Shown here: piece by piece, positions 13,385-43,150 of the stretch
Layout of the letters: each line of letters opens with the position of its first letter
Numbering within the stretch: the first letter of the stretch is position 1
NCBI GenBank assembly: GCA_035221665.1
Contig: CM069142.1
Span: 5,890,001 to 5,954,000 of the forward strand
Direction: 5' to 3'
Source: Okamejei kenojei
Taxonomy: Eukaryota
Length of the DNA stretch: 64,000 nt
The notes under the pieces: generated by a model
Told to the model about the DNA's origin: nothing
Seen by the model: only the letters and a program-made list of their open reading frames with translations
Database searches by the model: none
Made by a program: the position numbers and the translations under genes

Positions 13385-14082
13385 GGAAACGAGGAACTGC
13401 AAATGCTGGAACCTTGGCCAAACACATAGTGCTGGACAATGTCAGCAGGTCAGGCAGCATCTGTGGAGGGGTCGTTCCAGTGGATACACAATGGATGTTT
13501 CGGGTTGGGACCCCTCTTCAGACTAATGGAGTAGGGGGAAAGAAAGCTGGAAAAGAAATGTGGGCACAGGCAAAGCCTGGCAAGTGATAGGTGGATACAG
13601 ATGAGGATGGCGATTGGTAAACAGGTGGTAGTAAGTGACAAAGGCTGGAGGTGAATAGGAGACAAAAAGGTGTCAGATCAGTAGAGGAAAGGAGAAGTGA
13701 AATGTAAAGCTAGAGGGAGGGCTTGTGGGTGGAATGGGGAGGGGAAATAAAAGAGAAATGTGGGACTAGAGGATGGAAGATGAGTGCATGGAGAAGGGGA
13801 AAGGAGATGGGCGACTGGTGAGGTGGGAGATGGTGGGCTAATGTGTGCACACCAGGGTGGGCTACAGAGGAATGACAAGGGGGTAGGCATTGTTTGACAT
13901 TGAAGAAATCAATCTTCATCGCCTGTACTGTCAGAGGGAAAAAAGGTGGAAAACCAACTGAAGAAGGGTTTCGGCCCGAAACGTTGCCTATTTATTTCGC
14001 TCCATAGATGCATAGACACTGAGTTTCTCCAGCACTTTTGTCTACCTTCGATTTTCCAGCATCTGCAGTTCCTTCTTAAACA
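13385..14082. mobile_element. Penelope-like 3' tail (minus) followed by a plus-strand pLTR-type repeat carrying a minimal hammerhead motif
   Basis: CTGAAGA-stem-GAAAC motifs at ~13497-13522 (minus) and 13958-13985 (plus); same tail as the GIY-YIG-bearing copies. Confidence 0.7.
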
Positions 14083-42286: not shown

Positions 42287-42343
42287 AAACTGAATGCCAA
42301 GACAAGAAATGAAGCTTATGGCGAACTGAAACCAACTCAACAG
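42287..42343 (+). CDS. CD247: CD3 zeta exon 6
   Basis: TTACAG|...CAG|GTACAG, 57 nt; KLNAKTRNEAYGELKPTQQ completes ITAM2 YSKL-x8-YGEL. Confidence 0.92.
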
Positions 42344-42449
42344 GTACAGTGAACATGACCTGATTCATCAGTCAATTACTGTAACTTCCTGTAAATAAAC
42401 AGCTCCAAATTTCATTGATTCTGGCTGTAGCGATATGTTCAGGTCACAT

Positions 42450-42765
42450 AATGAAATGCTCGGAGGAGGAGGAAGAGGTGCAGCTCACAGGCCTTGAACC
42501 TGGTGAGATGCATGAGGAGCCCGGCCGGGAGTCACCCCACAGAGCCCAGTCCCTCCATGCACTAGAGTCTCCCAACCCCTGCAGAGTAGTTATTAAGATG
42601 GCTGATCCGTGGGCGGTTGCTGCTGGGACGCAAGTCGGGGCCTGATCAACCCCGGCTGGGTCGCCTGGGCGAGGGTGTCTGATGTTGTGAGACCCGAAAC
42701 ACCCGATGACCCCAGGTCACATCACTGAGGATGCGTCCCAGCGCATCTAGAAGATGTATATTTTT
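42450..42765 (+). mobile_element. Internally deleted Hero-like (R2-group) non-LTR retroelement
   Basis: MKC...EPGEMHEEPGRESPHRAQSLH resembles the Hero ORF N-terminal region and IKMADPWAVAAGTQVGA* its C-terminus, followed by a structured 3'UTR. Family assignment is from memory of fish Hero elements. Confidence 0.7.
42618..42745 (+). ncRNA. Candidate permuted hammerhead ribozyme with kink-turn
   Basis: CUGAGGA 42725-31, GAAA 42696-99, GUC 42677-79, plus six mutually compatible helices (see findings). Confidence 0.65.
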
Positions 42766-43150
42766 CACACCCTGTATGAACTAAGCAAACTGAATGTCCA
42801 CCAAGGGCATAAATCTGAAGCAAATGTATGCTTTGGTGAGTAACGAAATAAATAAATAAAAGCCATTTTGTCAGATGGATGAATATTGCACTTCATAACT
42901 AGTCTGTAATATTAGATAATTTCCCATGGAGATATGTGCATCCACTGTTAATATTGTCACTGTCTAAAGATCACAACAAAGCAGCTCAGGGTAGATATTG
43001 CAGGGACCTTGACATTCTGATAGGTCCATGTCAAACAGGGTGCTGCACGTGAATAAAAATCAGAAGAACTTACTGCAGTTTCCAGAGATGTGTACCTGAT
43101 TAACATGTATTATAGAAATAAATTAACTTGCATATTTTAATACCCCACAG

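Follow-up and report, generated by a model that had tools for sequence, protein, structure and literature searches.

An internal loop at 42667–42713 of the window, by which we mean the whole 64,000-nucleotide stretch of Okamejei kenojei contig CM069142.1 analysed here, raises the question of whether it is a genuine kink-turn (k-turn) built into a candidate self-cleaving RNA and, if so, whether that RNA would need a protein to fold. On the plus strand, the letters CCC-GAT-G-A-C-CCC (42702–42713) stand opposite GGG-C-G-A-GGG (42667–42675), and the GAU bulge, tandem G·A/A·G pairs and C·C pair reported in an earlier note on this DNA are present exactly as described there. In k-turn nomenclature, the −1b:−1n pair is C42704:G42673, and the bulged strand (42705–42710) holds L1–L3 (G, A and U at 42705–42707) followed by 1b G, 2b A and 3b C. 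The non-bulged strand (42670–42672) supplies 3n C, 2n G and 1n A, giving G42708·A42672 at 1b:1n, A42709·G42671 at 2b:2n, C42710·C42670 at 3b:3n and C42711:G42669 at 4b:4n. A bulge of three nucleotides with G·A and A·G pairs after it, between a canonical and a non-canonical stem, here with six Watson–Crick pairs in each stem, is the standard k-turn consensus, and the assignment made in the note is borne out by this match.

The pattern by itself is modest evidence only, as both strands of the window together contain 65 such patterns with 3 + 3-bp stems, 9 with 4 + 4 bp and 2 with 6 + 6 bp, the latter being this loop and one other. It is the conservation of both G·A pairs that lifts the k-turn beyond chance. 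Structure-based parsing of 227, 53, 17, 43 and 9 distinct copies gave five family majorities, representing four lineages, and the two G·A pairs, together with C:G at −1b:−1n, are kept in all five as well as in all nine full-core copies among 13 outside loci examined, while the flanking stems covary. Conservation of the GA/GA pairs in homologues, proposed earlier as a check, is thereby confirmed. Judged from these letters and their variation, the k-turn is very probably real and conserved.

Architecture of the hammerhead core

Comparison of the five family majorities revealed a single order of elements: helix X, hairpin Y, the helix II 5′ strand, helix IV, the k-turn, helix III, the cut site and helix I, followed by a linker of 3–5 nucleotides, the helix II 3′ strand, GAAA, helix III, the k-turn, helix IV, helix I, CUGANGA and, at the 3′ end, X. 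All features lie on the plus strand. The 5′ strand of helix X (42622–42632) pairs with its 3′ strand (42732–42742), a helix supported by covariation with 7 of 11 pairs changed on both sides, and hairpin Y with its CUGAUCA loop occupies 42633–42657; with no unpaired linker, X and Y interrupt the core between A9 and G10.1. The 5′ strand of helix II (42658–42662, G10.1 being 42658) pairs with 42691–42695 and is compensated in families B, C and D. Helix IV (42663–42669 with 42711–42717), which forms both the non-canonical stem of the k-turn and a brace of stems I and II, covaries, five of its six pairs having changed on both sides. The canonical stem of the k-turn is helix III, with its 5′ strand at 42673–42678 (U16.1 = 42678) and its 3′ strand at the end of 42691–42704, a segment that also contains the helix II 3′ strand and G12-A13-A14-A15.1 (42696–42699). 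By analogy with the hammerhead core, the scissile bond is predicted after GUC between 42679 (C17) and 42680. Helix I (42680–42685 with 42719–42724) has two-sided changes in five of six pairs, and the segment 42719–42731 continues from its 3′ strand into the core CUGAGGA (C3–A9, 42725–42731), in which N7 is G, U, A or C and the other letters are kept. A terminal G·U pair, 42663·42717, closes helix IV where stems I and II meet in each of the five majorities.

The letters CUGANGA and GAAA, the U16.1–A15.1 and G10.1–C11.1 pairs and an H17 other than G are present in all five majorities, deviations being found in the decayed single copies L138 and L140. Helices I and II have been rewritten with compensation, and helix III is little varied (two-sided change in 2/6 pairs). 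Throughout the majorities, A9 runs directly into X and Y directly into G10.1, which defines a linkerless four-way junction. At the other side of the molecule, both strands pass from helix III through the k-turn into the stem I/II brace, whose far end joins the strands of helices II and I by 0–1 unpaired bases in every family. This placement fits the geometry suggested in the note, in which the kink folds the extra helix toward helices I and II.

Conventional readings of the core as a type I–III hammerhead, or as a permuted form with an intact block C, were rejected, since no family pairs the bases after A9 with the strand that precedes GAAA. An extended helix I (42686–42690 with 42717–42718) was likewise dismissed, as it is not conserved. 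Within the Y loop (42641–42649) lies the palindrome UGAUCA, which is retained by families A, B and C and by most teleost copies; family D has a GAYG tetraloop in its place. The palindrome could be a kissing or protein site. The 23 sequencing runs found all consist of contigs, and in one of them a high-depth contig from another organism (L014:1602-1607) has changes in helix II and at G12 that should inactivate the core. Searches against Rfam gave no match at the gathering score for the window and, for 42300–43000 at E ≤ 10, no hammerhead-type match, the five hits obtained at E 2–9 being chance matches.

Conservation and search results

Across the majorities the bulge reads GAU, AAU, AGU or AAG, and the third pair, 3b:3n, is C·C, C·U, C·U, U·G and A·G in the five. 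The earlier description of a bulge ending in U holds for the window, but this letter is not invariant: families A, B and C and seven of the nine outside copies carry U at L3, and family D and L539 carry G. Helix III is shortened from 6 to 5 bp in family D and helix IV has been rewritten; the bulge, the G·A pairs and the C:G at −1 survive.

In an alignment of 14 rows, 92.7% of cells pair, and 25 of the 42 pairs change on both sides, as compared to 12.0 ± 2.2 in shuffles and 5–11 in slid controls, with the reservation that the MAFFT rows are out of register in places for families B, C and D and that related rows inflate the counts. Part of the sampling bears on the GA letters themselves. The search pattern for family B demanded GA on the bulged strand, and families C and D first surfaced under a pattern that barred it in the family-A register (G at 1b); part of A2, part of C and eight metagenome copies were retrieved by protein. 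With the window's own family excluded, a pattern for the odd-order core gave 771 matches versus 7 for the reversed control. The GA-barring pattern was not commoner than its control (490 versus 719), and no recurring family lacking the k-turn was found among the 100 of its matches that were listed.

The decay of the CpG at 3n/2n is one-sided. Copies of A1 and A3 show 25 C>T versus 9 G>A changes there (p 0.009, or about 0.1 after 11 tests, the copies not being independent), with the other 10 CpGs even, and A2 shows 32 C>T versus 0 G>A. Such decay fits source copies that tolerate U at 3n and not A at 2n.

Among viral contigs, a loose core pattern hit at least 120 loci, of which one passed a weak helix filter and by eye had no helix II; the family-specific pattern gave no match. 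Prokaryote genomes returned 37 matches, including one with a full core (L539). This locus (L539:430-600), on a contig of 3.5 kb from a bacterial metagenome bin, contains a complete k-turn hammerhead with bulge GAG and third pair U·G; it lies in AT-rich, repeat-flanked DNA and is probably host contamination.

The host retrotransposon

According to repeat matches and unit layout, positions 42450–42769 represent a 5′-truncated copy (320 of 534 bp), with fixed 3′ end, of family A1, a non-autonomous and internally deleted HERO/Zebulon-like LINE derivative. In the 534-bp unit, the first part of the LINE (5′ UTR and first codons) is fused to the final 178 bp of the element: 42450–42591 stems from the start of the reading frame, with a translation resembling the N-terminus of protein P0002, and 42592–42769 is the 3′ segment shared with the coding family A3, comprising the frame end, the stop at 42643–42645 and the 3′ UTR. 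The segment is highly repeated (1609 candidates; 40 scored matches at 98–100%), and its 23-nt tail pattern gave 660 exact matches versus 0 for the control. The repeats point to a skate or ray. A solo LTR reading was dropped, as the 320 bp are a truncated piece of a head-to-tail unit.

In related families, the motif is adjoined on its 5′ side by a frame with CCHC and restriction-like endonuclease motifs. The parent element has one frame with reverse transcriptase, C-terminal CCHC and restriction-like endonuclease (motifs read from the translation; PF00078 on relatives), and a Pfam scan of two parent-protein fragments returned a weak zf-RVT match alone. An A2 fragment is 55–77% identical to named teleost proteins and 55–58% identical to Q7T1J8_TETNG and Q76IN2_TAKRU, which we take to be the proteins of the Zebulon and HERO elements; Zebulon forms partial tandem arrays. 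The parent is called HERO/Zebulon-like, a clade name that rests on this assignment of the two database proteins. P0002 is 77% identical to the A2 fragment and 42% to the family C protein, and the reading frames of many teleost proteins and of one from amphioxus extend into the RNA motif, with endings like GRPGEGV. One frame that combines reverse transcriptase, CCHC and a PD..D/E endonuclease, together with partial tandem insertions, is shared with Zebulon and the HERO clade, the latter described in PMC4640811; a literature search on the HERO/Zebulon 3′ UTR found neither a ribozyme nor a k-turn.

Family C is autonomous, with a 3972-bp unit of the same layout and an intact frame of 1118 codons. 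Its near-intact partial tandems (L518, L521, L523, L524 and L525), at 95–99% identity and one of them with the 1118-codon frame open, indicate recent activity. Family B (L058–L085) numbers several hundred copies, which combine the same ribozyme with the remnant of a HERO-type C-terminus.

Relation to known ribozymes and k-turns

The closest relatives in design are the type-SGC hammerheads (HRIMA-1 and variants) which, according to the accessible text of Eckert 2023 (PMC10085705), come from metatranscriptomes, with none in genomes of known organisms. Both share the order of site, GAAA and CUGANGA, a short linker between stems I and II, a helix bracing these stems and the full core. In type-SGC, however, block C is contiguous, CUGANGA and stem II being assumed to adjoin, whereas here the stem II 5′ strand lies upstream, X and Y stand between A9 and G10.1, and the bases after A9 pair in helix X in all families. 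Furthermore, both strands enter the brace here from stem III via the k-turn, unlike in type-SGC, for which the same paper notes that stem III and brace are far apart yet sometimes directly linked, a geometry left unexplained there; the words 'kink' and 'k-turn' are absent from its accessible text and supplement text.

Head-to-tail units with one hammerhead each, a proposed circular RNA intermediate and non-autonomous derivatives are also described, in the accessible accounts, for non-LTR retrozymes and Penelope pseudo-LTR hammerheads (Cervera and de la Peña 2020, PMC7229834; Li et al. 2026, bioRxiv 10.64898/2026.07.22.740005). Those are type I hammerheads of Penelope-like origin, whereas the present tandem units differ in hammerhead type and in parent, a LINE with restriction-like endonuclease. 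The window does contain six motifs that resemble a minimal type I hammerhead (CUGAAGA, stem II, GAAAC, GUY), at 13958, 20365, 26942, 30844 and 45315 on the plus strand and 26173 on the minus strand; they belong to an abundant repeat and are probably Penelope-type ends. As for the k-turn, the 3-nt bulge, the G·A and A·G pairs, C:G at −1b:−1n and C at 3b or G at 3n are shared with metal-folding representatives such as Kt-7 and that of the SAM-I riboswitch, which bring a distant helix end to a tertiary contact, as the present one would (PMC4382518, PMC5689011, PMC5061560). The natural hosts listed in the accessible parts of this literature are the ribosome, snoRNA, U4, SRP, RNase P and riboswitches; here the host is a small, predicted self-cleaving retrotransposon RNA. 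In a literature search, with subscription journals and Repbase outside its scope, no publication describing a hammerhead with a k-turn turned up for these elements.

Predicted folding of the k-turn

In its accessible text, McPhee 2014 (PMC4382518) reports that C at 3b or G at 3n permits folding in Mg2+ and that a Watson–Crick or G–U pair does not, and Ashraf 2017 (PMC5689011) reports that C:G at −1b:−1n and at 4b:4n also favours metal folding. Under these rules, which come from Kt-7 duplexes and whose transfer to the present k-turns is uncertain, the window's k-turn combines all three metal-folding elements (−1b:−1n C:G, 3b C and 4b:4n C:G). Each of the five majorities follows the 3b:3n rule and has C:G at −1b:−1n, and none shows the marks of the protein-dependent class (3b:3n Watson–Crick, G–U or U·U, or −1b:−1n G:C). 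Three of the nine outside copies depart at 3b:3n, with U·U in two and C–G in one, and fit the metal rule less well or not at all; a G:C pair at 4b:4n, unfavourable to metal folding, occurs in family B. The k-turns of U4 and box C/D RNAs, bound by 15.5K/SNU13, share the consensus, and the U at L3 in most families here; with G–C, G–U or U·U at 3b:3n, or G:C at −1 or 4, their folding needs protein, and the family majorities here differ from them save for the 4b:4n pair of family B.

Taken together, the host-protein dependence considered in the earlier note is not supported, and the k-turn would quite probably, as far as its letters tell, act as a structural hinge that needs no protein. Both classes of k-turn fold upon L7Ae binding (PMC4382518; PMC5689011, accessible text), so that an L7Ae gel shift would be uninformative about the need for a protein.

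Predicted cleavage, tandem copies and possible template

Analogy with known hammerheads makes it likely that the RNA cleaves after C42679, as the core varies only where hammerheads allow: N7 is free, H17 is C or A in the family majorities, and the other core letters are fixed across four lineages. A survey of unit starts (90 of 100 matches used, four pairs of which look like segmental duplicates) showed that 86/90 have 5 nt or more of a partial copy directly upstream. Across all 90, 69 end within 90 nt, 1 ends precisely at the cut site and 21 run past it. Under a linear template that begins at the cut site, a pile-up would be expected at 90 nt; this model was rejected, only 2/90 lying at 87–93 nt. 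Among copies flagged terminal, in a survey of 90 of 660 matches, 1/85 stops within 3 nt of the cut site (87–93 nt), two of the 85 being in fact internal. In family A1 (L232–L261, L382–L441), few 5′ truncations fall within 300 nt of the 3′ end, and their frequency rises steadily with copy length toward and beyond one full unit.

Easy passage in the first round and quick stops in the second fit a circular template, and we lean slightly toward a circular RNA; template jumps or tandem transcripts left uncut could instead account for the tandems. Of 21 insertions in 308 copies, three sit at the scissile bond (nominal p 0.002, from a small count in which one of the three copies is degraded), a weak hint at cutting and rejoining.

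Alternative explanations

The protein hypothesis holds that the hammerhead folds and cleaves only once the k-turn has been bound by SNU13/15.5K, by another protein of the L7Ae family or by the element's own protein. The prevalent U at L3 would suit such a binder, and a helper protein is named in the accessible text of Eckert 2023 (PMC10085705) as one possible cause of slow SGC cleavage. In family A, moreover, 42658–42663 may pair with 42707–42712 instead, which would break the k-turn in about half of the nested ensemble (0.51 vs 0.48, computed without pseudoknot or k-turn energies), a balance that a binder could shift. Against this stand the G at L3 of family D and L539, a rival pairing that the sequences of families B, C and D make impossible, and the metal-folding class of 3b:3n in all five majorities with C:G at −1b:−1n throughout, unlike in U4 and box C/D. 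We therefore hold a protein requirement to be unlikely, and just as doubtful a k-turn that docks a host L7Ae-family protein (SNU13/15.5K) or the element's protein and thereby tips the split-core hammerhead between cutting and closing. If the docking reading were true, a widespread animal LINE clade would replicate via a protein-gated circular RNA of about 4 kb.

The RNA may also be catalytically idle or very slow and serve as a handle recognised by the reverse transcriptase at the RNA 3′ end, for which R2 3′ UTRs are the model; the kink would then be structural only and the tandems products of template jumps. Terminal copies do run through the predicted cut site without a pile-up, and the CUGAUCA loop of Y and the sequence of helix III are more conserved than catalysis requires, yet the variation obeys hammerhead rules exactly, with N7 free, H17 C or A and the rest fixed in four lineages. 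The slight enrichment of insertions at the scissile bond and the lack of a free 5′ end at 86 of 90 unit starts also make such a handle improbable. Less probable still is that the GA/GA loop is fortuitous or unkinked and the active form a strand-swapped dimer of two tandem units. The Y-loop palindrome could join two RNAs and short-stem k-turn-like patterns are common (the 65 with 3 + 3 bp in the window), but family D has no palindromic loop, and the 3-nt bulge, both G·A pairs and the C:G at −1 persist through the shortening of helix III from 6 to 5 bp and the rewriting of helix IV.

Proposed mechanism and implications

Sequence and covariation together show the helices X, Y and I–IV, the invariant core, the invariant G·A/A·G pairs and the position of the motif behind a reverse transcriptase–endonuclease frame. 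As the best explanation, to which we assign a probability of roughly 0.7, we propose that a conserved standard k-turn acts as a metal-folded hinge, with no helper predicted, within the non-circularly permuted hammerhead RNA that HERO/Zebulon-like elements carry at their 3′ end. Helix III would point away from stems I and II, and the kink, with an angle of about 50 degrees given for k-turns in the accessible text of PMC5061560, would turn helix IV back, whose far end would link the tips of stems I and II in place of the usual contact between loops I and II. The RNA would then cleave itself at the predicted site. With less certainty, read-through transcripts of partial tandem copies may be cut to unit-length RNA, which may be circularised and serve as template for reverse transcription that starts internally, giving the observed insertions of 1.x units.

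On this metal-folded hinge reading, the element would provide a small self-cleaving ribozyme of natural origin with a k-turn at its centre. It would also place a non-circularly permuted hammerhead in animal genomes; the paper that described this kind in 2023 reported, in its accessible text, none in known organisms. The k-turn offers a concrete answer to the puzzle of stem III and brace geometry raised there, and the architecture breaks the assumption that CUGANGA and stem II must adjoin. Four natural lineages with different third pairs would form a ready series on k-turn folding rules, with cleavage as the read-out. For the HERO/Zebulon-like LINEs themselves, the ribozyme would supply a testable cause for their partial tandem insertions.
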